The translations under genes were made by a program, and so were the position numbers. Positions 27,681-40,352 of a stretch of DNA of 64,000 nt are shown here, in pieces. This stretch comes from Ostreococcus lucimarinus (Eukaryota), in NCBI GenBank assembly GCA_000092065.1, contig CP000584.1. One strand, given 5' to 3'. The notes beneath the pieces are model-generated. The model searched no databases. It had not been told where the DNA came from and saw only the letters and a program-made list of their open reading frames with translations. How positions within the stretch are numbered: the first letter of the stretch is position 1; each line of letters begins with the position of its first letter.

Positions 27681-28020
27681 GTGCGCGACGCGAACGCGCG
27701 AGCGCCCGGAACGACGCGACGACGACCGCGCGAACGACGACCGCAAAACGGGGCGACGGGCGATGGCGCGGTAGAATATTCCCAGCGCGCGACCGTCGCG
27801 GAGGGGGGGGGAGGGCGCGCGTCGCGCGCGTCGCGCGCTCTAAAGAGAGACAAGAATGCGCGCGAAGGATGCGCGCGAGGACGCCGCGAATGGGGACGGT
27901 TCGCGCGCGATGGTGGGCGTCGAGCGCGCGAAGACGGCGAACGGAGGGCGGCGAGACGCGCGAACGACTCGAGGGCGTTGACTGACGGATTCACGCGATG
28001 CACGCGCGCGGGAAGCGTAG
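27681..28020 (+). other. spliceosomal intron (340 bp) of the SPX gene
   Basis: GTGCGC donor. TTGACTGACGG branch site 33 nt before the AG acceptor. Confidence 0.5.
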
Positions 28021-29051: not shown

Positions 29052-31682
29052 ATGCGACTCCTCGACGGGTCGCCCTCGGCCCAATACGTCGTTTCACGCG
29101 AGCTCGTCGTTATGCTCGACGCGCCGCGCGCGGGCGTGCCTCGGCGCGTGCGCGAGCGATTCGAAAGTGCGAGCGAGACACATCCATCATCCAACGACGA
29201 ACGACGAGCGGTGTCGAACGAGCGCGACGTTGAGGTAGGCTGCGAGTCAAGATACGAACAGCCTTTTCTGACGACGCGACTCCATGAAACTGACGTGACT
29301 AACGACGTGACTGACGACGTGACTGACGACGCCTCGTCGCGTGAGCTGCAGATCGCTCGAGCATTTCTCGACGCACGGTTGAACGGTGAGCACGAATACG
29401 AAGGCTTTGAAGCGCTACTGTGCGACGAATCCGTGATCTCTCTGACGACGCGACTTCTCGCGCGCGTCGAAGAGCGCGGCGAAGCCAAATTTCCAGCGAA
29501 AATGGTTCTGAGCGCGTACATGATTTGCTACCACGCCGATGTGGTCCTCGGTGGTTCGAACGCGAAGGAGGTACCGTGCGAAGAAACGTCGCTCATTGAT
29601 TCATCCAAGGCGTTGGTTAACGCGTTCGACGCGCTCGCACTCACGATGTCGCGCTCGGGCACGTTCACAGCCACCATCACGAACGCGTTCGAGCGCGCTT
29701 GGCACACGTGGACTGCAGATTTCAAAATTTGGAAATCGAAAGACGCGTTTAGTTTGACCCAAGAGCTCATACGAATCGGTGTTGCGATGGAGTCTTCGAT
29801 GATTCGTGTGTGCGGCGCTCGCGGCGCGCTCGATTCCACAGTCGATCTCGGTGAAGAACGCAACGCGATACGCTCCGCACAATCGCACGATCGCGCGCTT
29901 CTAAGAGAGAAAGTCTTCACGCTTTCGGGTAAAAGCGCAGTCGACGAGTTCGATGCGATGATTACAAGAGTTCGAGCCGCGGGCTTAAGCGACGAAGAGT
30001 CAGCGAGGGCAAAGGATACTCGCACGGATCGGCTCGACGAACGTCGGCGTAAACGGGAAGCCACGAGCGCTCAAATCGCCGCTGCGATCGAAAAGGACAA
30101 AGAACGCGCTCGTCAGCAGATGGCTGGTGAAGAAAACGTTGTTTCGAACTTTGTCGAAATGCAAAAGGATCAGATTTTACACGAATTAATGCTGGACCCC
30201 GAGTGGAAGCTCAGAGCGCCACCAAAGTCACCCGTTGAGGACGATCCCGTACGCGAGCAGGTCGTACAAATCATGAAGAAGGCGTTCTGGGACATGGTGT
30301 ACGAATCACTTGTTCATGATACGATCGACACATCTATCGTTCGCGCTCGAATTTTCGAATGGAAAGACGCCATCATCGACGACACTTTGATTTTGGATCG
30401 CCAGACGACGGAGAGCTTGGAACTGATCCAAAATTCACTCAGCCTCATCGACGTCAACTATCTTGAAGCGAGCATCTTGCGCATGGAAAGCACACCTACA
30501 GACACATCAGAAGCTTTGCGAACCTCGCTCGATCATGGTTACACGGCTCTCAATGCGCTCGCGAATGGTTCCGTGAAGGACGATCTTAGCGCTGCGTTTG
30601 ACAATCTGACGCGAGAACTCGAGACGGCGACGAACGCGGACAAATTCACTTTATCTCGAGCGATTGCTGATGCTTTGGCGTTCTTGTTTGATTTTCGCGA
30701 GCGTATACACCAATCGATGAGCCTTGAAGCAGCCAACGAGGCGATTGATGCACTCCGCGAGACGCTCGCGGTGATGCCAGATGGCATCGAGTACGCGACA
30801 ACGCGCTTCTTGCATCGATTTGATGTGAAAGTCGGGGAGACCGAACTCGCACTTGCGTTTCCTCGCACGTGTGCTTGGCTTGAAAGCGTCGTCGAAGAGC
30901 TTCCGACGCTCGATGCGACATTTGCACCTCTTCTCGATTCTCTCAATGTCGACCGCTGGCGAGGCGTGCGTCTGAGGAGCGGTTTCGAGACTCGAGCCGA
31001 GGGCGCGCAAAAGACTTCTTCGGAAGTAATCAGTTCAACTTTACATCCGACCCGGGTCATGTCTGTGAATGGTGTTTGTCGTGTCGCCTTTGCACGATTG
31101 GTTACCAATCCCAACGCCATGATTCAAGACTTTATCCCGGAAACGCTTGAAAACGACGTGCAACGCATCGATTACTTTTGCCGTGAGTTTCAGAACATTC
31201 AAACGCTTGCCGCTTGTTTGATGCTCTCCACGCAACTCTGTCGCTTAGAGGTTTTCGTGGATGTGGACGCGCTCATCGATCGAGTCGCGGTTCTGCTCTC
31301 TTCGGAACGAGACCTACCGGCGATGTCTCGCGTCGCCGAGGTCCTCTCCGCGACGCTCCCGACGTCCGACGGCGCCCAAACCATCACCAACATGCTTCGC
31401 AAGCTCACGGGTTCCGACGATTGCGCCAATCCGATGTCTGTCGCCATCATCAAGGCCATACGATCCGCGCTCACGATTCGTCTCCTTCACGGCTTCGAAG
31501 GCGAAGCCGTTGATAGGGCGTGCGACGCCCGGCTCGCCGCAGTCTTCGCGTCGCGTCTCCGTCCTCGCGTCGACGCCATCGCTCGCGACGCCGCGCGAGT
31601 GATCAATCTACACGCCACAGTGCGCGCGCCCGTGGTTTCGGCCTTAGTGAACGACTTGCTCGCCAGAGATGATGAAATTTAA
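29052..31682 (+). CDS. T-complex protein 11 (TCP11/Sok1) family protein
   Basis: ILHELMLDPEWKLRAPP...VVQIMKKAFWDMVYESL matches the TCP11 family core from memory. In-frame 12-bp tandem repeat (TDVTNDVTDDVTDD) at 29283-29335. Confidence 0.55.
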   Translation: MRLLDGSPSAQYVVSRELVVMLDAPRAGVPRRVRERFESASETHPSSNDERRAVSNERDVEVGCESRYEQPFLTTRLHETDVTNDVTDDVTDDASSRELQIARAFLDARLNGEHEYEGFEALLCDESVISLTTRLLARVEERGEAKFPAKMVLSAYMICYHADVVLGGSNAKEVPCEETSLIDSSKALVNAFDALALTMSRSGTFTATITNAFERAWHTWTADFKIWKSKDAFSLTQELIRIGVAMESSMIRVCGARGALDSTVDLGEERNAIRSAQSHDRALLREKVFTLSGKSAVDEFDAMITRVRAAGLSDEESARAKDTRTDRLDERRRKREATSAQIAAAIEKDKERARQQMAGEENVVSNFVEMQKDQILHELMLDPEWKLRAPPKSPVEDDPVREQVVQIMKKAFWDMVYESLVHDTIDTSIVRARIFEWKDAIIDDTLILDRQTTESLELIQNSLSLIDVNYLEASILRMESTPTDTSEALRTSLDHGYTALNALANGSVKDDLSAAFDNLTRELETATNADKFTLSRAIADALAFLFDFRERIHQSMSLEAANEAIDALRETLAVMPDGIEYATTRFLHRFDVKVGETELALAFPRTCAWLESVVEELPTLDATFAPLLDSLNVDRWRGVRLRSGFETRAEGAQKTSSEVISSTLHPTRVMSVNGVCRVAFARLVTNPNAMIQDFIPETLENDVQRIDYFCREFQNIQTLAACLMLSTQLCRLEVFVDVDALIDRVAVLLSSERDLPAMSRVAEVLSATLPTSDGAQTITNMLRKLTGSDDCANPMSVAIIKAIRSALTIRLLHGFEGEAVDRACDARLAAVFASRLRPRVDAIARDAARVINLHATVRAPVVSALVNDLLARDDEI

Positions 31683-31729: not shown

Positions 31730-34700
31730 ATGAAGATGAACCGCTTTTCCGTTGCCCACGCGTCAGAATTCTGCATTCAGCGACTCGCGCGGCGAGCACG
31801 CCGCGCTCGAAACGCCGCCAAGTTGTCGCAGGAGAACAACGATGTGTGCGCGCGCGACGAATCCACCGTCGCGCGCGACGAAGCGCGCCAAGGCCTGCTG
31901 TCGCTCGCGCGCGTCGCGAGTCGACGCGTCGATCGCTCGTTACGACGCATGCGCGCGTCAATCAGTCGTAGACGCTCCAACAAAGGAACGGATGGCGAAG
32001 CGTGCTTAGTTTTACACGGATGGCGAAGCAACGCCGACGTGAGCGCGCTGCATGCGCGAAGGTTGCGGCTTTTGAAGCGATTTAGAAAGGCGTCGTGCGT
32101 GAATGGCTCGGAGGAGGCGCCGCACGCGGCGGACGAGACGACGTCTGAATTAATCGATGGACCGTGGTTCTCCTGGGTCGACGACGCGAGTGATGATACG
32201 TTTGAAAATTTGGAAAGCGAGCGAGCGACGGCGTTAATGACGGCGGCGCGATCGGTGGCAAAGTTTGCCATCGAACACGGGCCGTTCAAGTGCGCGGTGG
32301 GATTTTCGCAAGGCGGCGCAATGATCACGTTGTTGTCCAACCCGCAGGTCTTAAGCATGCTGGGGATCGAAGGGGGCTATTTGTGGGACAGTGCGGTGAT
32401 TTGTTGCGGCGCGTCATCTTCATTGCTCGATCTCGCGGCGACGAAGTGGGGTATCGACGTGCGCTCGTCGGCGTCGCCGATGCCGTCGTTGCACGTGTTC
32501 GGTTTTCAAGACAAATTCAAACCACAAGGTGAAGTGCTCATGAATACGTTCCGTGCGTACGACAGCGAGGACCAATTGATCAGACACGCTCTGTATTTAG
32601 ACTGCGGTCACACGTTGCCGGCGTCGCTCGAGACGGACACTGGTTTTCACGCCGAATTCGACGCCTGGCTCGAGGCGGCGACCGAGGCGGCTCCCCGTCG
32701 TTACAGGTCAAACGAGTTCGATGAAGATGTTTTGTTCGACGACATCAAGTCGCTAGAGTATAAGTCGCTCAAGTTTAGTAATCAGCCCACCATCGAGCGC
32801 GCTGAGGCTGATATTGAGAGAGCAGAAGCGGAGGGCGCACGCGCCGCCCAAGCGACGACATTTGCTTCAGCCAGAACTCTCGCCCGAAACATCGATGTAA
32901 GCACCGCAACTGCGCCGAGCGGGAATGATCTCACGTTCAACACGCGCTGTGCGAGTTTGGTTCAGTGTAATGTGTCGCTAAAGTCAAGCAGAGTGAATAT
33001 TCTTGACTTTCTAGCGAGGGCGCCTCGAGCGTCTCCGCTTCTTCGAAGCTTGGACGGGGCAACATTGACGTACGGGCAAGCGATCGACTTCATAACAAAA
33101 GGGGACGGTGATTTACGTAAACTTGGGGCAGATTCGTCATCTGTTTTTGCGTATAATGTCCCTCCAGGCCCGGTCGGTGCGCTAGCTTTTCTCGCCGTCG
33201 CGTCGCAGTGCACCGCCGTCCCTTTGGACCCCGGCATCGCCGAGGAAGACGCCTACGAAGCCCTGACGTCGTGTCGAGTGTCAATGCTTGCGTTATTTCG
33301 AGGAACCGACACTGAAGCAATTGAAACGGCAGCTTCTCGAGCTCATATACCGATTAAATGGTTCGTGATGACGGAAGCTGATACTAAACTTGCCGGTTTG
33401 TACGCGCCGGAATCGTCTCAATCGTCAACGAGTGACGTCGCGCCGCTCGTACAATCGAGTGAAACGATCGGTCTTTTGCTTCGAACTTCTGGGACGACAT
33501 CCAAGTCAAAAGTTGTTCCGTTGGTTATCGGCGCGTTGACTTCAAACGGCGCTACGCTGGCGGCTTCTCTTGAACTCAAAGCTTCAGACGTTTGCATCAA
33601 CGCCATGCCTCTTTTTCACATCGGTGGCCTTTCGTGTTCCATCTTGGCGACGATCGCGGCGCACTCTTCTGTCATCTGCTGTCGTAAGTTTGACGCTCAA
33701 TCGTTTTATGACACCATTACGACGTCGCATGAAGTCAAACCGACGTGGTACTCAGCAATACCGACGATTCATTTGACAGTACTGCAATACGGTCAAGCTG
33801 TGGCTCGTGGCGCAAAGCCATCGCATGCTCTTCGTTTCATACGCTCTGGCGCGGCGGCGCTCAGCCATGCCGACGCAGAAAAGTTGCAACGATTTTGGGA
33901 CGTGCCGATAATACCGACGTATAGTATGAGTGAACAAATGCCGATCACTGGTAAAGGTGTCCACGTTCCGCTCGCCGAGCGTGCGGATACCGTGGGCCAG
34001 CCTCTCTGTTGTTCGTTTGCGCTCGTCGGTGATGGTCATTGCAGACTCACGGCACCTTTTGGACAGCAAGGTGAACTCGTCATCAGCGGTGATAACGTGA
34101 TGACGGCGTATCAAGATGCGGAAGAAGCTAACAATAAGACTTACTTCTACGTTGCCGATAAGCGTTACCTTCGCACTGGCGACATCGCAAAGATGGACCA
34201 CGATGGGTTTGTGTACTTGACTGGTCGTAGTAAGGAACTTATCAAGCGCGGGGGTGAGCAAGTGAGCCCATTAAAAGTCGAGGCTGTGCTCGTGCAGCAT
34301 CCATACGTGCGTGTTGCGGTAGTCTTCAGCGTTCCTTCGGCGCTTTGGGGAGAAGAAGTGGGCGCCGCGATCGTATTGACCGACGACTTTGATGGGCACG
34401 AAGACTCGGCGCTCTCTTCAATCAAGTCTTTCATGGGAACATCGAAAGAACTATCTCGATTTGAAATTCCTGTACACTGGAAATTTGTCGCTGACGAAGA
34501 TTTACCCAAAACATCGACGAAAAAGTATAAGCGTGCGGGTTTGGCCGAGATTTTAAACGTCGCGAAGAAAGTCGACGCGTGCACTTTGCGGCACTCTAAA
34601 AAGGTGACGACCCCGTCGCATGGTCTTGCAGGCTTGCGCTATTGTATGGCTGTAGGTGTGATGTTTAACCACATAGGTGCCATTTGGCAAGGCGAGGACG

Positions 34701-36391
34701 AACGTGATCCTTTGACGTATGGTCCAGCGTGGATGTCTGCCAAGGCGACGACGTTTTACTTTCCAGCGACAACTTTCTTTGTGCTGGGTGGCTTCACGCT
34801 CAGCGCCGCACTGAACGGCAAGGAAATCACAAAAGGAACATGGGGATCGTTCTATAATTCAAGGTTTCAAACACTCTTTCCTCTGTACTTGCTGTCTTTG
34901 TTTCTCGGTCTGATCAACGTCCTCGTGGTGTGTCGCCCGGAAACTTTTAGTAGCGAATTTAGCTGGCAACCACATAACGCAACGCTCACGCTCGACTCTG
35001 GGGCGTGGGCGCAATGCCAGACCGGTCCAGTGGAGATGCCCTACGGCGCTTGGCTCTTCATGACCCTCATCGTTTTCTCTTTCGGGTTGCAAACTTGGTT
35101 CCCGCTGTGGCTTCTCAGCTCGTGGTTCATGTACTACACGTGGTTCAACGGCGTTTACTATTTCATTATTCTCGTGTTTCCTTTCATGCACAACGCGCTC
35201 GCTCGCGTCAAAGGCGAATTCAAAGCCGTACTGAGATGGTTCATCGTTTACTGTGTCGGTACTCTTATCACCGCCGGGCTTTTGGGATTGTACTACGCCT
35301 TACCGGCGTGGGAAGAGCACGACGATGTCGCCAAAGTGAAGAGCTGGAAAGAAAATGTGCAGAACATCTACGCACTCAGCACAATGATGTTTCCGCCGTA
35401 TTGGGTGCCATGTGTCGGTACGGGTATGGCCGCATACTTTTGGTACGACGCCGTACGGCCAGTAGAGTCGCACAAGCGCGCGTTGTACGGCCACTGCGCC
35501 GATGTGCTCACGCTCGCATTTTTCGCCTTCCATCTCGCCCATTTCCTTGACATTGATTGGCCTTATCCGACCAACGTCACGGGCAAGATGTGGGAAGTTG
35601 TACCCGAAGAGCATCATCGCTGGGATACAGGCATCAATCGCTATGTATGGAGCGTCATGATCACTCGGTTGTATTCTCCGTTGATCGCCGTCTGGATCGC
35701 TCTGCTGTCGATACCGAAGGGCAGCCGAACGACTCGCCTTCTTGAATCAAACTTACTAAGCAAAGTGCTCGCCCCGACGAGTTATGGTTGCTTCTTGTTC
35801 CACCAGATCATTGGACAGTGGTATTGGTGGGCGACTCGTAATGGAAATGGCATCAAGACCGCAGACGTTGGCGACAAGACGTCGTGGATGTGGTGGGCGT
35901 ATCCGAAGGAATATTACTGGTTCTCGCCGCAGCCGTTACCTGTGGCGTGGTACGAGTTCTTCTTCATCGTCGGAATGACGACGTGCTTTTCGGCGGCGGT
36001 AGACAGGTGGCTCAATACTCCACTGACGGTGCTATGGATCAAGTTTATAACCTTCTTCCGGAATATTATATGGCCGAATTCGGCGAAGAGCGCGGAGACT
36101 TCGGGTAGCAGCGAGGAGTCGTCGCCTGAAGACGCGGTGATCAAAGCAGTCGCCGCGGTCACGGGCGTCGACGAACGAGTGTCTCTCGACGACTCCTTTG
36201 ATGAGATCGGTCTCGTTTCTGTCGGTCTGCCAGTGCTCGTGGGTATAATCAACGCCGGCGAACAATTCGCCGTCATCTCGGCTCAAGAAATAGCGACGTG
36301 CGCGAACCTTCGTGACGTCGTCAGAATAATCGCTTCCAAGCGTGAATCGGCTCGATCGAGTGTAGGGTTTGGAACTAGAAGCTCTCTGTAA
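31730..36391 (+). CDS. multidomain FSH1-type serine hydrolase + adenylation (AMP-binding) domain + family-3 membrane acyltransferase + phosphopantetheine carrier domain
   Basis: Hydrolase: LVLHGW..., GFSQGGA (GxSxG), ...DCGHTLP. A-domain: LLRTSGTTSKSKVVPL (A3), YLRTGD (A8), LTGRSKELIKRGGEQVSPLKVE, LPKTSTKKYKR (A10 Lys). AT3: GLRYCMAVGVMFNH.., FFVLGGFTLS, FYNSRFQTLFPLY, about 10 TM helices. Carrier: VSLDDSFDEIGLVSVG (Ser attachment site). TGTAA overlaps the TAA stop (36387-36391). Start may be ATG 31949. Confidence 0.75.
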   Translation: MKMNRFSVAHASEFCIQRLARRARRARNAAKLSQENNDVCARDESTVARDEARQGLLSLARVASRRVDRSLRRMRASISRRRSNKGTDGEACLVLHGWRSNADVSALHARRLRLLKRFRKASCVNGSEEAPHAADETTSELIDGPWFSWVDDASDDTFENLESERATALMTAARSVAKFAIEHGPFKCAVGFSQGGAMITLLSNPQVLSMLGIEGGYLWDSAVICCGASSSLLDLAATKWGIDVRSSASPMPSLHVFGFQDKFKPQGEVLMNTFRAYDSEDQLIRHALYLDCGHTLPASLETDTGFHAEFDAWLEAATEAAPRRYRSNEFDEDVLFDDIKSLEYKSLKFSNQPTIERAEADIERAEAEGARAAQATTFASARTLARNIDVSTATAPSGNDLTFNTRCASLVQCNVSLKSSRVNILDFLARAPRASPLLRSLDGATLTYGQAIDFITKGDGDLRKLGADSSSVFAYNVPPGPVGALAFLAVASQCTAVPLDPGIAEEDAYEALTSCRVSMLALFRGTDTEAIETAASRAHIPIKWFVMTEADTKLAGLYAPESSQSSTSDVAPLVQSSETIGLLLRTSGTTSKSKVVPLVIGALTSNGATLAASLELKASDVCINAMPLFHIGGLSCSILATIAAHSSVICCRKFDAQSFYDTITTSHEVKPTWYSAIPTIHLTVLQYGQAVARGAKPSHALRFIRSGAAALSHADAEKLQRFWDVPIIPTYSMSEQMPITGKGVHVPLAERADTVGQPLCCSFALVGDGHCRLTAPFGQQGELVISGDNVMTAYQDAEEANNKTYFYVADKRYLRTGDIAKMDHDGFVYLTGRSKELIKRGGEQVSPLKVEAVLVQHPYVRVAVVFSVPSALWGEEVGAAIVLTDDFDGHEDSALSSIKSFMGTSKELSRFEIPVHWKFVADEDLPKTSTKKYKRAGLAEILNVAKKVDACTLRHSKKVTTPSHGLAGLRYCMAVGVMFNHIGAIWQGEDERDPLTYGPAWMSAKATTFYFPATTFFVLGGFTLSAALNGKEITKGTWGSFYNSRFQTLFPLYLLSLFLGLINVLVVCRPETFSSEFSWQPHNATLTLDSGAWAQCQTGPVEMPYGAWLFMTLIVFSFGLQTWFPLWLLSSWFMYYTWFNGVYYFIILVFPFMHNALARVKGEFKAVLRWFIVYCVGTLITAGLLGLYYALPAWEEHDDVAKVKSWKENVQNIYALSTMMFPPYWVPCVGTGMAAYFWYDAVRPVESHKRALYGHCADVLTLAFFAFHLAHFLDIDWPYPTNVTGKMWEVVPEEHHRWDTGINRYVWSVMITRLYSPLIAVWIALLSIPKGSRTTRLLESNLLSKVLAPTSYGCFLFHQIIGQWYWWATRNGNGIKTADVGDKTSWMWWAYPKEYYWFSPQPLPVAWYEFFFIVGMTTCFSAAVDRWLNTPLTVLWIKFITFFRNIIWPNSAKSAETSGSSEESSPEDAVIKAVAAVTGVDERVSLDDSFDEIGLVSVGLPVLVGIINAGEQFAVISAQEIATCANLRDVVRIIASKRESARSSVGFGTRSSL

Positions 36392-36763: not shown

Positions 36764-38398
36764 TTAGCTTCGCTCGCGCAGGCGTCGATCAAAGTCGGAG
36801 AGGTCGTAATCATCGCCGGCGCCCTCGTTGGACGTGTACACGGCGTCACCCACGACGCGCTGGGACGCAGCTGAGCTCGCGGCGGCGAGCTTGGCGGCTA
36901 AACGAGGCTCTGGACTCGCGATACGGCGAGCTGCGAGCAATCGAGAGTTATTGCGAGCATCGATTTCCCGGTTCTTGCCTTGGTTGCGGAAATAGCGCAA
37001 CAGCGGAACGACGAAGAATAATACGCCGTAGCTCAGTAAACCGGGGAGCAAGCCCGAGAAGGCGCGCGCCAACTCCACGTACTCTCGGGTGCGGTACATG
37101 ATTTGCGGGTCGTTAATCATCTGCGCCAAAATCACCACCCCCACTAAGTTCGCAACGCCGAGTAAACCCGCTTGAATCTTTTGCGACGGCTCGGCGAGCG
37201 AAAACACCCATCGCTCCTCTTGCGCCAACGCCTCACTTTCGCCTCTACTTCGCGCCGTTGTTTTTCCAGCGGTGGACTCCATGTTAGGAAATCGATAAAT
37301 GATCGATCCTGTGACGGTATTCACCTCTGGCGTGCCCTCGAAGCGGGTGAGCGCGGGCAAGACAAAGGACTCGTCTTCGTATCCCGCCGTGTCCAGAAAC
37401 GGCGCCAACTGCTCCGCCGTCACAACGCCCTTATTCTTTTGAATCAAGCGTCCAACCAACTCCCAACGCCGCTTTTCGAAATCCAAGTTCGGATCGCCGT
37501 CGCCGAAAACAAAACTGAAGACAGCCTCAAAAAAGTTCATCTCTCTGTCGCGTCTTCGCGGTCGGCGATAGTAGTACGGATCCCAATACCAAAACAAATC
37601 AAACGGCGAAATGTAAAAGCGCGGCCCAGCGAAGCCACCACCGCGCCGATCTGAACGATCGTCACTACTCTTGGCGCTCATGAGGGCGAAGATGGCGGTG
37701 TAGACAATCATCACGCTCGCCACGAGCGACGTTCCAAACGCCACGCGAAAAACGTACGAAGCTAAGCTTTTCGCCCCGCTCACGATCGGTTCGATCTTCA
37801 TCTTGAACGATTTCGAGCTCAAAATCCCTCGTGTCGACCTGGGAAACACGTATGTGAGATCGCCCGCGCTGGATACTTCCAAAGTCGCTCCTGTGTCCGC
37901 CGCCAGCGCGTTGAGCGCCTTTTGCGTCTCGAACACGCTCGCCCCCGAAATCGAGCTCACGTCCCCCACAGTGGCGCGATACTGCGCCTTCTCGATCGCT
38001 TTAAGTGTTTTTTCGCGCAATTCAGCGTTCAAATCATCGCTCTCCACGCGTCCTCCCGGGGCGACGGCGAGCTTGTCGTCCTCCGCGAGCGCGCTCTCGC
38101 GAGGCAGGTCCAACTCGACTCGATCGTCGTAGTCCCATCCTCCTCGCGCGCGCGTCGTCACCGCTCCATCGCGCGCGCGCGCGAAGCGCGTCTTTCGCGC
38201 GACGCGCCCGTCCTCAGCGCGCGTCGCCGCGTCGCTCGCCCGCGCGCGCGACCTCGTCGGCGTCATCTTGGACGACGCGCGAACGACGACGACGACGACG
38301 CGCGGCGACGACGACGACGCGCGCGCTCGAACGGCGCCGACCGCGAGCGGCGGCATCGCGCGCGAGTTGTGCGTCGTCGGCACCGCGGTGGCGCGCAT
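36764..38398 (-). CDS. conserved plastid/cyanobacterial-type membrane protein (At5g03900-like), with presequence
   Basis: ORF 36764..38497. N-terminal S/A/R-rich presequence, soluble domain (ATVGDVSSISGASVFETQKALNAL), FGDGDPN motif, and two TM regions flanking a domain containing VTAEQLAPFLD. Start is uncertain (38497, 38398 or 38356) because it overlaps the neighbour's start. Confidence 0.5.
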   Translation of the reverse strand: MRATAVPTTHNSRAMPPLAVGAVRARASSSSPRVVVVVVRASSKMTPTRSRARASDAATRAEDGRVARKTRFARARDGAVTTRARGGWDYDDRVELDLPRESALAEDDKLAVAPGGRVESDDLNAELREKTLKAIEKAQYRATVGDVSSISGASVFETQKALNALAADTGATLEVSSAGDLTYVFPRSTRGILSSKSFKMKIEPIVSGAKSLASYVFRVAFGTSLVASVMIVYTAIFALMSAKSSDDRSDRRGGGFAGPRFYISPFDLFWYWDPYYYRRPRRRDREMNFFEAVFSFVFGDGDPNLDFEKRRWELVGRLIQKNKGVVTAEQLAPFLDTAGYEDESFVLPALTRFEGTPEVNTVTGSIIYRFPNMESTAGKTTARSRGESEALAQEERWVFSLAEPSQKIQAGLLGVANLVGVVILAQMINDPQIMYRTREYVELARAFSGLLPGLLSYGVLFFVVPLLRYFRNQGKNREIDARNNSRLLAARRIASPEPRLAAKLAAASSAASQRVVGDAVYTSNEGAGDDYDLSDFDRRLRERS

Positions 38399-38486
38399 GT
38401 CGATCGAAGCGAAGGGCGCGTCGTGAGATGACGCGATGCGACGCGAAGGACGAGCGAGCGACAGTGCGAGACGCGCGACGCGCGCG

Positions 38487-40352
38487 ATGTCTCGCAAGGG
38501 CGGATGGGGACGCGGGGACGAGGATGATTATTACGACGATTACGACGACGACGAGGCGTACGACGACGACGACGAGGCGTACGACGACGACGACGAAGCC
38601 GCAGGCGCCGGGCGCGAGGCCCTCGAGCGAGCCGAGGATGGCGAGCGCGCGACGACGGGCGCGAGGGCGGCGAAGACGAGCAAGGCGATGGAGTTGATGA
38701 AGACGAAACCGACGCCCACGCGCGTGGGGATGAAAGAGATCGAGGCGCGGATGGCGGCGGAGAGAAACGCGAGGTATCCCGCGGCGCCGCGCGGGCCGAG
38801 CGGAGGCGGCGCGAGCGCGGGGAAGTTTGCGTTCGATACGCCTTCACCGGACGCGGCAGCGGCGGCGGCGCGAGCGCGGGGGAGTAAGTCTGGGGCGAGC
38901 GCGGCGATGGAAACGACGGAAACGCTCGTGAAAGAATTTGCGGCCAAGACGCGAGTCGGCGGCGACGCGACCGCGTTTGCGGGATACGAAGCTTCGAGCG
39001 CCGAGCGCGCGGCGTACACCTCACCGGAGGGCGGTGACGTGCACGTCGTGATATTAGGACACGTTGATGCGGGGAAATCGACGCTTAGTGGGCGATTGAT
39101 GTACGCTTTGAAAGCGGTCGATGACAGAGCGATGCATAAAAACGTGCGCGATTCCAAGGCGAGCGGGAAATCGTCGTTCGCCTGGGCTTGGGTGATGGAC
39201 TGTAGACCGGAAGAACGAGAGCGCGGGGTGACGATAGACGTCAGCATGAAGCGATGTGTGTTAGATGGACATCGACAGTTGGTAGTTTTAGATGCTCCTG
39301 GGCACAAAGATTTCGTGCCGAACGCGATTTCCGGCGCGTCGCAAGCCGACGCGGGCGTTTTGGTCATTGACGGCGCGATGGGTGGATTTGAAAACGGTTT
39401 CGCTGCGACTCCAGGTCACACGGGACAAACGCGCGAGCACGCGCGATTGGCGCGGGCGCTTGGTTTACATTCCCTCATCGTCGTCATCAATAAGATGGAC
39501 TGCGTTGAGTATGGAGAGGAGCGATTTAGATTTGTCGTCGATGCGCTTCAAAACTTTCTCATCGACGACGTCGGTTTTAGCCAAGAACAGCTCACGTTCG
39601 TGCCGGTTTCGGGGATTGAGGGTACAAATATTTCGCCCGATGACGCGGCTGCATTGCCCGATGCATTGGCCTCGTGGTATCGAGGCCCGACGCTCGTAGA
39701 CGCGTTGCGAGCGGTTAAAATTCCATCTCGAGGAGCGCCGAAACCGCTTCGCATGCCAATCGCAGACATCATCACCGAAGTGCGCTCTCTCGGTGGAGCC
39801 GCGTGCGGTGGTAAGATCGAAGCTGGAAGCTTGATGAAAGGTCAAAAGCTACTCGTGATGCCGGCCAACGTTTCGGCCACTGTGAAGTGCGTGGAAGTGG
39901 ACGGAATAGCCGTCGACTTTGCGCCGATTGGCACATCCGTGGACGTCGGCTTGAGCGACGTGGATTCGCGGCATTTAGAAGTCGGGAGCGTTTTATGCCA
40001 TGCGTCGCATCCAATAACGCCCACGGATGAGATTGAAGTCCGTGTGCTCACGACGGACATGCTTCGTGTGCCTTTACTCAAAGGCTCAAGGGTTGTTTTG
40101 CATTCGCACATGCTCGCGTGCGACGCAACGATTGAGGAACTCGTCGCGCAAGTGGACACGGTGACGGGAGACGTGGTAAAGGCAAGTCCTCGGTGTATTA
40201 CGCGCGAACAGAGCGCTATTTTGCGTATTCGCACGTCTAGGAATATTTGCGTCGAACCGGTCGAGATTTCACCGACGTTAAGCCGCGTGACGCTTCGCAT
40301 GAATGGCAAAACCATGGCGCTCGGTGTGGTGACTGCGATTTGGCGCTCTTAG
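38487..40352 (+). CDS. HBS1: HBS1-like translational GTPase (Hbs1/Ski7 family)
   Basis: G-domain: GHVDAGKSTLSGRLMY, ERERGVTIDV, DAPGHKDFV, NKMD. EF1A-like domains II/III. Acidic DDYDDDEAYDDDDE N-terminal extension. ERERGVT and QAD context resemble Hbs1 more than eRF3. ORF opens at 38436; ATG 38487 (MSRKGGWG) is preferred. Confidence 0.75.
   Translation: MSRKGGWGRGDEDDYYDDYDDDEAYDDDDEAYDDDDEAAGAGREALERAEDGERATTGARAAKTSKAMELMKTKPTPTRVGMKEIEARMAAERNARYPAAPRGPSGGGASAGKFAFDTPSPDAAAAAARARGSKSGASAAMETTETLVKEFAAKTRVGGDATAFAGYEASSAERAAYTSPEGGDVHVVILGHVDAGKSTLSGRLMYALKAVDDRAMHKNVRDSKASGKSSFAWAWVMDCRPEERERGVTIDVSMKRCVLDGHRQLVVLDAPGHKDFVPNAISGASQADAGVLVIDGAMGGFENGFAATPGHTGQTREHARLARALGLHSLIVVINKMDCVEYGEERFRFVVDALQNFLIDDVGFSQEQLTFVPVSGIEGTNISPDDAAALPDALASWYRGPTLVDALRAVKIPSRGAPKPLRMPIADIITEVRSLGGAACGGKIEAGSLMKGQKLLVMPANVSATVKCVEVDGIAVDFAPIGTSVDVGLSDVDSRHLEVGSVLCHASHPITPTDEIEVRVLTTDMLRVPLLKGSRVVLHSHMLACDATIEELVAQVDTVTGDVVKASPRCITREQSAILRIRTSRNICVEPVEISPTLSRVTLRMNGKTMALGVVTAIWRS

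Follow-up and report, generated by a model that had tools for sequence, protein, structure and literature searches.

Predicted adenylation and carrier domains fused to a TmAT-type membrane acyltransferase in Ostreococcus lucimarinus, other algae and bacteria

The 64,000-nucleotide stretch of Ostreococcus lucimarinus contig CP000584.1 (assembly GCA_000092065.1) that was analysed here, hereafter the window, carries at positions 31730-36391 on the plus strand a single open reading frame (ORF) without an internal stop, which encodes 1553 amino acids (aa) followed by a stop codon. As judged from the ORF list and an alignment of orthologues, its product is a fusion of an FSH1-type alpha/beta serine hydrolase, an ANL adenylation (A) domain, a membrane acyltransferase of the AT3/TmAT superfamily and a C-terminal phosphopantetheine-binding carrier. 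An initial, sequence-only reading of the window had claimed one polypeptide with these four domains in this order, and the ORF, the Pfam matches and the colinear orthologues agree with that claim. The motifs quoted in that reading were likewise found: GFSQGG (containing S193), TSGTTSKSK, YLRTGD, PKTSTKKYKR (containing K932), FFVLGGFTLS and FYNSRFQTLFPLY. We class the protein as a TmAT acyltransferase whose donor supply is built in as an adenylation domain and a carrier, and we found no functional description of it in the papers searched. Our favoured interpretation, which we hold with slightly better than even confidence, is that it constitutes a self-contained, carrier-fed and coenzyme A (CoA)-independent transmembrane acyltransferase that applies a Dlt-like logic to an AT3/TmAT core.

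A Pfam scan of the complete protein returned FSH1 (PF03959; aa 92-301, E 3e-14, 53.6 bits against a gathering cutoff of 21), AMP-binding (PF00501; aa 442-794, E 2.5e-36, 125.8 bits) and AMP-binding_C (PF13193; aa 849-932, E 4e-9, 37.7 bits). Acyl_transf_3 (PF01757; aa 965-1391, E 7e-7) scored 29.0 bits, the cutoff being 31, and PP-binding (PF00550; aa 1469-1532, cutoff 20.8) gave a non-significant match in this whole-protein scan (E 0.22, 12.2 bits). The AT3 and carrier calls are secured by conservation across the family, by relatives that pass the cutoffs and by fold comparison, as described below. Pfam gave no match in the window protein to the condensation domain (PF00668) or to PF00975, and neither Pfam nor NCBIfam found an MBOAT or DltD-like domain in it. 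NCBIfam holds no model for the fused protein, its best matches being acyl-CoA ligase families.

Among the orthologues, P0001 is identical to the window protein and P0002-P0011 share 61-72% identity with it over 94-97% of its length. The domain layout is colinear in all 11 of these Ostreococcus-clade proteins and also in other algae and ~25 bacterial genes of 1370-1500 aa. The Ostreococcus tauri entry is named just 'AMP-dependent synthetase/ligase', and other public names are 'AMP-binding protein' and 'oxalate--CoA ligase'; the current annotation of the family is uninformative or misleading.

The breadth of this layout bears on whether the ORF might be an artefact, in which adjacent genes are read as one through a missed stop, an intron or an assembly error. 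Such an error might be suspected from the start of the gene, since only 47 nt separate its ATG from the preceding gene's stop and conservation is lacking over the first ~87 aa, and from three relatives, one with its FSH1 domain in a separate gene (L003) and two bacterial copies that are fragmented (L012 and L032). However, the frame is open over every domain junction, the same fusion of ~1400-1580 aa recurs in 11 close orthologues, in other algae and in ~25 bacterial genomes, where the context is intron-free, and a fused form exists in Methylobacterium sp. Gmos1 as well. We therefore regard the artefact as essentially refuted and give it almost no credence. The start codon itself is uncertain. 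Homology with the orthologues begins at ~aa 88, leaving an Arg/Ser/Ala-rich variable N-terminal region (aa 1-87; 31730..31990, plus strand), and an alternative start, Met74, lies at nt 31949. Because of the 47-nt gap and the unconserved composition of this region, the true start may be Met74; alternatively, the N-terminus may serve as a targeting peptide.

The carrier (aa 1466-1545; 36125..36364, plus strand) forms a four-helix bundle in the predicted structure. When the C-terminal ~100 aa of 12 members were scanned alone, PP-binding was the sole Pfam family matched, in 11 of them and with a best E of 3.7e-5; the window protein reached 19.4 bits in such a scan, and the relatives P0106 (30.1 bits) and P0085 (21.0 bits) passed the cutoff. 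A profile of the carrier region, compared with the PDB, retrieved a polyketide synthase (PKS) carrier (8xjy) first and the acyl carrier protein (ACP) of rat fatty acid synthase (2png) third, and S1497 aligned in both with the serine of the GGHS/GLDS motif. This residue (nt 36218-36220; motif EIGLVSVG), the predicted attachment site, lies just before helix II in an AlphaFold2 (AF2) model. The serine had been placed earlier by the sequence-only reading, in LDDSFDEIGL (S1489), a position which does not hold up: over 55 non-redundant relatives, some of them ~20% identical, S1489 is kept in just 22, and S1497 in all 55, together with G1494 (54) and L1495 (50). In 14 distant members the motif reads GLDSL. 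The carrier is tethered to transmembrane helix 10 (TMH10) by an amphipathic helix (aa 1429-1447) and a Ser/Glu-rich flexible linker reaching to aa 1465 (36011..36124, plus strand), which appear in the AF2 model as a helix at model residues 480-498 and a low-confidence linker at 501-513.

The membrane domain (aa 965-1427; 34622..36010, plus strand) comprises ten predicted transmembrane (TM) helices and a re-entrant segment at aa 1105-1132. The Acyl_transf_3 cutoff is passed by the relatives P0127 (47.2 bits), P0123 (41.1 bits) and P0084 (35.0 bits). A phmmer search of this region against PDB sequences found nothing, and an hhalign profile comparison with E. coli WecH aligned the TMH9 segment alone (with SLGIYGFH of WecH; probability 0.24), the RxxR region being uninformative. 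We scored the AT3 core positions listed in PMC7448272 and PMC12423673 over the 55 relatives. The TMH1-Arg (R970) is kept in 54 and the TMH1-His (H981; nt 34670-34672), exactly X10 after R970, in all 55, while the TMH2-Phe (F1016) is kept in 54 and the TMH2-Gly of the FFXISG/FxxxxG motif (F1016-F-V-L-G-G1021) is Gly in 45 and Ala in nine. The first Arg of RxxR in TMH3 (R1045) is Arg in 43 and Lys in 11, the TMH6-Gly (G1232) is present in 45, the TMH9-Tyr of SxxxY (here S1351xxxF1355) is Tyr in 32 and Phe in 23, and the TMH9 His (H1358) is kept in 53. Two positions deviate throughout: the Asp of DxxR, which is A967 in the window protein and A/N/S/G/T or others in the family, and the second Arg of RxxR, which is T1048, occur in 0 of the 55 relatives and in 0 of the 25 bacterial sequences. 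By these motifs the window protein is assigned to the AT3/TmAT superfamily, with two donor-site deviations.

Both missing positions are donor-site residues of the cytosolic side, and their loss from a TmAT core that is otherwise kept would fit an altered donor (PMC12423673). The DxxR Asp is dispensable in OacB (PMC12423673), and both Arg residues of RxxR, the second included, are essential in OafA (PMC7448272). The RxxR motif has been called 'highly but not absolutely conserved' in AT3 work.

Hydropathy alone is weak for the AT3 domain, the helices of which are rich in aromatic residues. The helices used for the analysis of loop charges were therefore those of the AF2 model of aa 950-1553 (pLDDT 63.8, pTM 0.71). 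Over the 55 sequences the loop charges alternate, with L2, L4, L6 and L8 basic and L1, L3, L5 and L7 acidic. A 10-TM arrangement with both termini inside and the segment 1105-1132 re-entrant in loop 3-4 gives 17.5 Lys plus Arg inside versus 9.1 outside and fits 54 of the sequences, compared with 44 for a variant in which 1105-1132 is a full TM helix. A 12-TM reading, with both 1105-1132 and the amphipathic helix 1429-1447 crossing the membrane, was rejected because the variant with 1105-1132 as a full helix fits the positive-inside rule less well. The predicted topology, with ten helices and cytoplasmic termini, matches the canonical AT3 topology. Its outward loop 3-4 (L3) contains a Cys pair (C1068 and C1096, kept in 53 and 52 of the 55, respectively) and, in 16 of the sequences, N-x-S/T sequons. 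Since the charge bias fits this arrangement, both the A domain and the carrier are predicted to lie on the cytoplasmic side, which is the outcome of a topology check that the sequence-only reading had proposed for the carrier. The A domain is joined to the N-terminus of the AT3 core and the carrier to its TMH10, the two elements by which the pore is bounded at its cytoplasmic entrance in the OafB model (PMC9833829).

The ANL adenylation domain (aa 430-945; 33017..34564, plus strand) was delimited from Pfam, core motifs and solved relatives. Its core motifs comprise A3 (TSGTTSKSK), A7 (D818), A8 (R833) and A10 (K932), and T586, K594, E735, D818, R833 and K932 are invariant in a full-length set of 39 sequences, of which 14 are eukaryote-type and 25 bacterial. 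A loss of the carrier serine or of the A-domain motifs in orthologues, which the sequence-only reading had named as a possibility, was thus looked for, and these residues proved to be retained. The closest solved relatives of the domain are oxalyl-CoA synthetases (6qjz, 3.6e-62; 5ie0, 2e-55; 8aff, 1.3e-52), a group that includes plant AAE3/LsOCS and yeast Pcs60, with malonyl-CoA synthetases far behind at ~1e-30. The PDB matches and the public names suggested oxalate as the substrate, a candidate which we rejected. Oxalate specificity in AtAAE3 resides in Ser289 and His319 (PMC8905533), and both are replaced, by Ala708 and Pro738 respectively, in the window protein and in all 39 sequences; likewise His223 and Cys295 of AtAAE3 correspond to Gly632 and Gly707, which are invariant in the same set. 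The fusion family is hence a relative of the oxalyl-CoA synthetases rather than a member, and its product would probably be a carrier thioester instead of a CoA thioester.

The residues lining the acyl pocket (I631, G632, G707, A708, S732, M733 and P738) are essentially invariant across the 39 sequences, and it follows that the whole family is predicted to have one common substrate. From the same residues, this substrate is probably not oxalate and somewhat larger. The nearest A domains outside the family retain the oxalate signature and sit in A-PCP-C/TE proteins, which contain a peptidyl carrier protein (PCP) and a condensation (C) or thioesterase (TE) domain, and the lineage therefore contains carrier-loading enzymes. 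Three of these proteins, P0014, P0015 and P0018, resemble nonribosomal peptide synthetases (NRPS) and carry A domains with the oxalate-specific His/Ser/His signature; one of them is publicly named 'oxalate---CoA ligase', and by sequence they are candidate oxalate-loading carrier systems. Condensation and TE domains, which would make up an NRPS module, are present only in the out-group proteins P0013-P0019 and not in the fusion protein. A-PCP-acyltransferase fusions also occur among the distant A-domain matches.

The N-terminal hydrolase (aa 92-301; 32003..32632, plus strand) was identified by PF03959 and by conservation of its triad, S193 (GFSQGG; nt 32306-32308), D261 and H294, each of which is found in 13 of the 14 eukaryote-type and in all 25 bacterial sequences; the complete triad is kept in 38 of the 39. 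A single-sequence phmmer search of this region against PDB sequences found nothing. Some family members are without FSH1 and consist of A-AT3-carrier, or of AT3-carrier alone, and the hydrolase is therefore regarded as accessory to an A-AT3-carrier core. LovG releases and edits ACP-bound acyl groups, and FSH1-type hydrolases are encountered as parts or neighbours of carrier-dependent synthases (PMC8283056, PMC4147253, PMC10512364). The domain shares its alpha/beta-hydrolase family and Ser-Asp-His triad with the trans-acting LovG-type/FSH1 thioesterases of PKSs (PMC4147253, PMC10512364, PMC8283056). Those enzymes act on carrier-bound acyl groups, an association with carriers that recurs in the fusion family; here, in contrast, the hydrolase is the N-terminal part of the same chain and would act on a putative substrate. 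The sequence-only reading had assigned no role to the hydrolase, for which that of an editing or release thioesterase would be the most economical and most likely.

Arrangements of the hydrolase vary in several relatives. In a Methylobacterium-like assembly (L003, 8635-12910), FSH1 is encoded by a gene of its own directly ahead of the one for A-AT3-carrier, and Methylobacterium sp. Gmos1 has a fused form of 1425 aa. Among distant members, P0012 (L001, 5201-12193; 2330 aa) is lengthened ahead of FSH1 by ~700 aa that include a predicted TM helix and may form an extracytoplasmic N-terminal domain, and P0099 has an EF-hand pair in the corresponding place, which suggests regulation by calcium.

An exhaustive profile search, with clusters defined at 50% identity, retrieved 456 cluster representatives at E <= 1e-3 and 100 at E <= 1e-30. 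Many of the representatives are 1200-1650 aa long with the AT3-carrier part C-terminal, and named members come from Pycnococcus provasolii, Pseudoscourfieldia marina, Methylobacterium and a Pseudomonadales metagenome-assembled genome, the dinoflagellate members (Prorocentrum/Polarella) having AT3-carrier only. A word-indexed search with a second alignment (A2) retrieved fragments for the most part, with little taxonomic information. When GTDB species genomes were scanned with the algal alignment there was no match, as the two peptide patterns derived from it were clade-specific; an alignment of the bacterial clade yielded 27 loci. These belong to Marinobacter, Marinibactrum and Neptuniibacter (complete genomes), Aeromonas, Pseudomonas (including P. 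chlororaphis PCL1601), Pseudoduganella, Acinetobacter (seven), Comamonas, Zoogloea, Azonexus, Neisseriaceae, Hyphomicrobiales and four cyanobacteria, and in nearly all of them the gene product measures 1369-1495 aa. The fusion, which the sequence-only reading had described in a eukaryotic protein, is thus no eukaryotic or algal peculiarity, since its full-length form is widespread in Proteobacteria and Cyanobacteria. In a crude neighbour-joining tree the bacterial copies form one compact clade and the eukaryote-type sequences fall into several deep clades. The copies of Aeromonas popoffii (L012) and Nodosilinea (L032) are split into several ORFs, which could reflect frameshifts, pseudogenes or assembly errors.

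The bacterial genes have recurrent neighbours. A gene for an Sfp/EntD-type phosphopantetheinyl transferase (PPTase; 4PPT_N + ACPS) lies downstream in 11 loci, at 72-2714 nt from the fusion gene, and in L004-L006 it starts 167 nt past the fusion gene in the same orientation. No independent evidence speaks more strongly than this linkage for the carrier domain working as a carrier. Immediately upstream and on the same strand, 19 loci within L007-L033, and L003 in addition, encode a YbhB/YbcL-family phosphatidylethanolamine-binding protein (PEBP; 'Raf kinase inhibitor-like') with a signal-peptide-like N-terminus. A review of genomic context reports that PEBP/YbhB genes are rarely found in conserved operons and omits a linkage to the fusion gene, and this linkage appears to be unreported. 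Downstream, an AraC-type regulator (18 loci), ElbB (DJ-1/PfpI; 10 loci) and a porin (four loci) are also encoded, and a short-chain dehydrogenase (SDR) accompanies the gene in seven loci, including all four cyanobacterial ones. In the literature searched there was no earlier account of an A/PCP-AT3 fusion or of a PEBP-acyltransferase operon, absence there being no proof.

In two Pseudomonadales-type metagenome contigs (L004, 714-6000, and L006, 2554-8657), the fusion gene adjoins a proteorhodopsin gene and stands beside a crtE-crtI-crtB-crtY carotenoid/retinal cluster, to which a blh-like gene is added in L006.

Under the carrier-fed interpretation that we favour, the cytoplasmic ANL domain would adenylate a small carboxylic acid, probably not oxalate, with ATP, and the acyl group would pass as a thioester to the phosphopantetheine arm of S1497, on the protein's own C-terminal carrier, which the linker tethers to the cytoplasmic end of TMH10. 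In its chemistry, the phosphopantetheine arm is identical to the pantetheine half of CoA. The acyl-phosphopantetheine arm would then take the place of acyl-CoA in the cytoplasmic AT3/TmAT cavity, and the thioester would be brought up to the invariant H981, near the outer face, so that the acyl group could be passed to an acceptor across the membrane. In bacteria, the co-encoded and apparently secreted YbcL-like PEBP may help to reach this acceptor. FSH1 would most likely rid the carrier of acyl groups that are mis-loaded or stalled, in the manner of LovG and type II thioesterases. Because the catalytic residues survive to ~20% identity across algae and bacteria, selection is concluded to maintain all four activities jointly.

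The Dlt-like logic proposed by the sequence-only reading has accordingly gained in substance from the invariant carrier serine and A-domain residues, the predicted cytoplasmic placement and the PPTase gene in 11 loci, while the mechanism itself is one that we infer. The cell-surface or glycan acceptor named in the same reading is conjecture, as nothing that we found identifies the acceptor. More tentatively, the family could represent the first carrier-dependent, CoA-independent branch of AT3/TmAT, a single-chain activate-carry-translocate exporter of a free-acid acyl group with the secreted YbcL/YbhB PEBP as its acceptor-side helper; we regard this fuller proposal as possible rather than probable.

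Several points weigh against carrier feeding. All characterised AT3/TmAT enzymes use acyl-CoA (PMC9558356, PMC12423673), and the AT3 review argues that the donors are not ACP (PMC9558356). A contact with the 3'-phosphate of CoA is predicted for the TMH1-Arg (PMC9833829), and this residue is kept in 54 of the 55 relatives, although a donor consisting of pantetheine only would have no need of it. Among characterised enzymes, those closest to the A domain are CoA ligases. In the Ostreococcus clade the carrier serine is preceded by Val (GLVS) and not by the usual Asp or His, which could weaken recognition by a PPTase; Asp occupies this position in the 14 distant members with GLDSL. The window copy falls just below the Pfam cutoffs for both AT3 and PP-binding, the sidedness is deduced from the positive-inside rule together with a model of medium quality, and RxxR was mapped by its spacing from P1051, which is conserved.

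The same evidence raises the question of whether the A domain might instead produce a special acyl-CoA at the mouth of the AT3 pore, to be used by the membrane domain in the conventional way, with the carrier as an auxiliary element for docking, regulation or buffering. Besides the solved CoA ligases nearest to the A domain, the acyl-CoA ligase families at the head of the NCBIfam matches and the donor of every characterised relative (PMC9558356, PMC12423673), this account can draw on the retention of the TMH1-Arg, TMH3-Arg, TMH2-Phe and TMH9-Tyr/Phe of the CoA site. However, it leaves unexplained an always-fused carrier with a serine kept in 55 of 55 relatives, as well as a dedicated PPTase gene in 11 bacterial loci; it must also accommodate the loss of the DxxR Asp and the second RxxR Arg in all members and the fact that sister A domains load PCPs. 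On balance, we consider it unlikely.

A further alternative would keep the chemistry on the cytoplasmic side, in an Aas-like salvage or remodelling cycle in which FSH1 frees a carboxylic acid from an ester, the A domain reloads it onto the carrier and AT3 acylates a membrane lipid or a lipid-linked acceptor, in the membrane or its inner leaflet, instead of a soluble or polymeric acceptor beyond it. Aas and related A-PCP-acyltransferase fusions do resemble the present family in coupling an ANL domain, via a carrier, to a membrane acyltransferase; they employ, however, PlsC-type (PF01553) acyltransferases on the cytoplasmic leaflet, whereas the fusion family has an AT3 pore. Furthermore, H981 is placed at the outer end of TMH1, the location that this His has in AT3 enzymes with extracytoplasmic acceptors (PMC9833829), and the conserved Cys pair lies in the outward loop 3-4. 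The PEBP with its signal-peptide-like N-terminus, and sometimes a porin, encoded alongside the bacterial genes likewise point to chemistry on the periplasmic side, and several members have no FSH1 at all. We hold this alternative to be quite improbable.

DltABCD, which carries out D-alanylation in Gram-positive bacteria, comprises the adenylation enzyme DltA, the carrier DltC, the MBOAT membrane acyltransferase DltB, and DltD. Carrier feeding of the fusion protein would resemble this system in its activation with ATP, its cytoplasmic carrier thioester and its polytopic membrane acyltransferase with a catalytic His, delivering to the outside, and the fusion protein has an A domain, a carrier and an acyltransferase on the expected sides of the membrane. 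The membrane part, however, is AT3/TmAT and not MBOAT, and there is no DltD, so that the protein is Dlt-like without being a member of the Dlt system. To our knowledge, Dlt is the sole well-understood carrier-fed system, and its MBOAT fold is unrelated to AT3.

With the AT3/TmAT enzymes (OafA/OafB, OatA, Oac and WecH, in a superfamily with HGSNAT, CASD1 and GWT1) the fusion family has in common the 10-TM core, R-X10-H, FxxxxG, the first RxxR Arg, the TMH6-Gly, SxxxY/F with the TMH9 His, and the outward loop 3-4. Known AT3/TmAT enzymes draw acyl-CoA from the cytoplasmic pool, whereas the fusion family has cytoplasmic donor-supply domains of its own in the A domain and the carrier. Known AT3 fusions involve SGNH, NRF and racemase-type domains, which are on the other side of the membrane from the A domain and carrier of the present family. 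A fusion with A or carrier domains is not mentioned in the AT3 review, the AT3/TmAT structure papers or the OafA/OafB mutagenesis study consulted.

Carrier dependence, if true, would be new for the AT3/TmAT superfamily. It would mean that transmembrane acyl transfer from a carrier protein has been solved twice, on two different folds, and that an AT3 pore accepts a protein-tethered pantetheine arm. If the PEBP indeed acts as a helper, this would provide the first concrete biochemical context for a long-enigmatic bacterial protein family, and its occurrence in abundant marine picoalgae and dinoflagellates would imply that some surface or endomembrane component of algae bears an acyl modification not known so far. 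Marine picoalgae of ecological dominance have the family, and so do bacteria that can be cultured and are genetically tractable (such as Pseudomonas chlororaphis, Acinetobacter and Marinobacter). The bacterial orthologues make carrier dependence directly testable, and the neighbouring PPTase, AraC regulator and PEBP offer experimental handles.

Within the window, the fusion gene stands in an ordinary, compact eukaryotic gene order. The upstream ORF (29052-31682, plus strand; 876 aa) has a Tcp11 (T-complex protein 11) domain, and the downstream ORF (36764-38497, minus strand; 577 aa) has an Arg/Ala/Ser-rich N-terminus and hydrophobic segments and gave no Pfam match. Homologues of the bacterial neighbours (PEBP, PPTase, ElbB, porin and SDR) were looked for in the 64-kb window and none was found. 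Bacterial contamination of the window was considered and rejected on the basis of the eukaryotic flanking genes (Tcp11) and the 11 Ostreococcus-clade orthologues. The GC content is ~0.61-0.69 in the first 28 kb of the window and ~0.52-0.58 from 28 kb on, short rebounds excepted, and the fusion gene sits in the lowest-GC stretch (0.52-0.55). The drop near position 28000 could mark the boundary of a chromosomal compositional domain or a foreign origin of the region.

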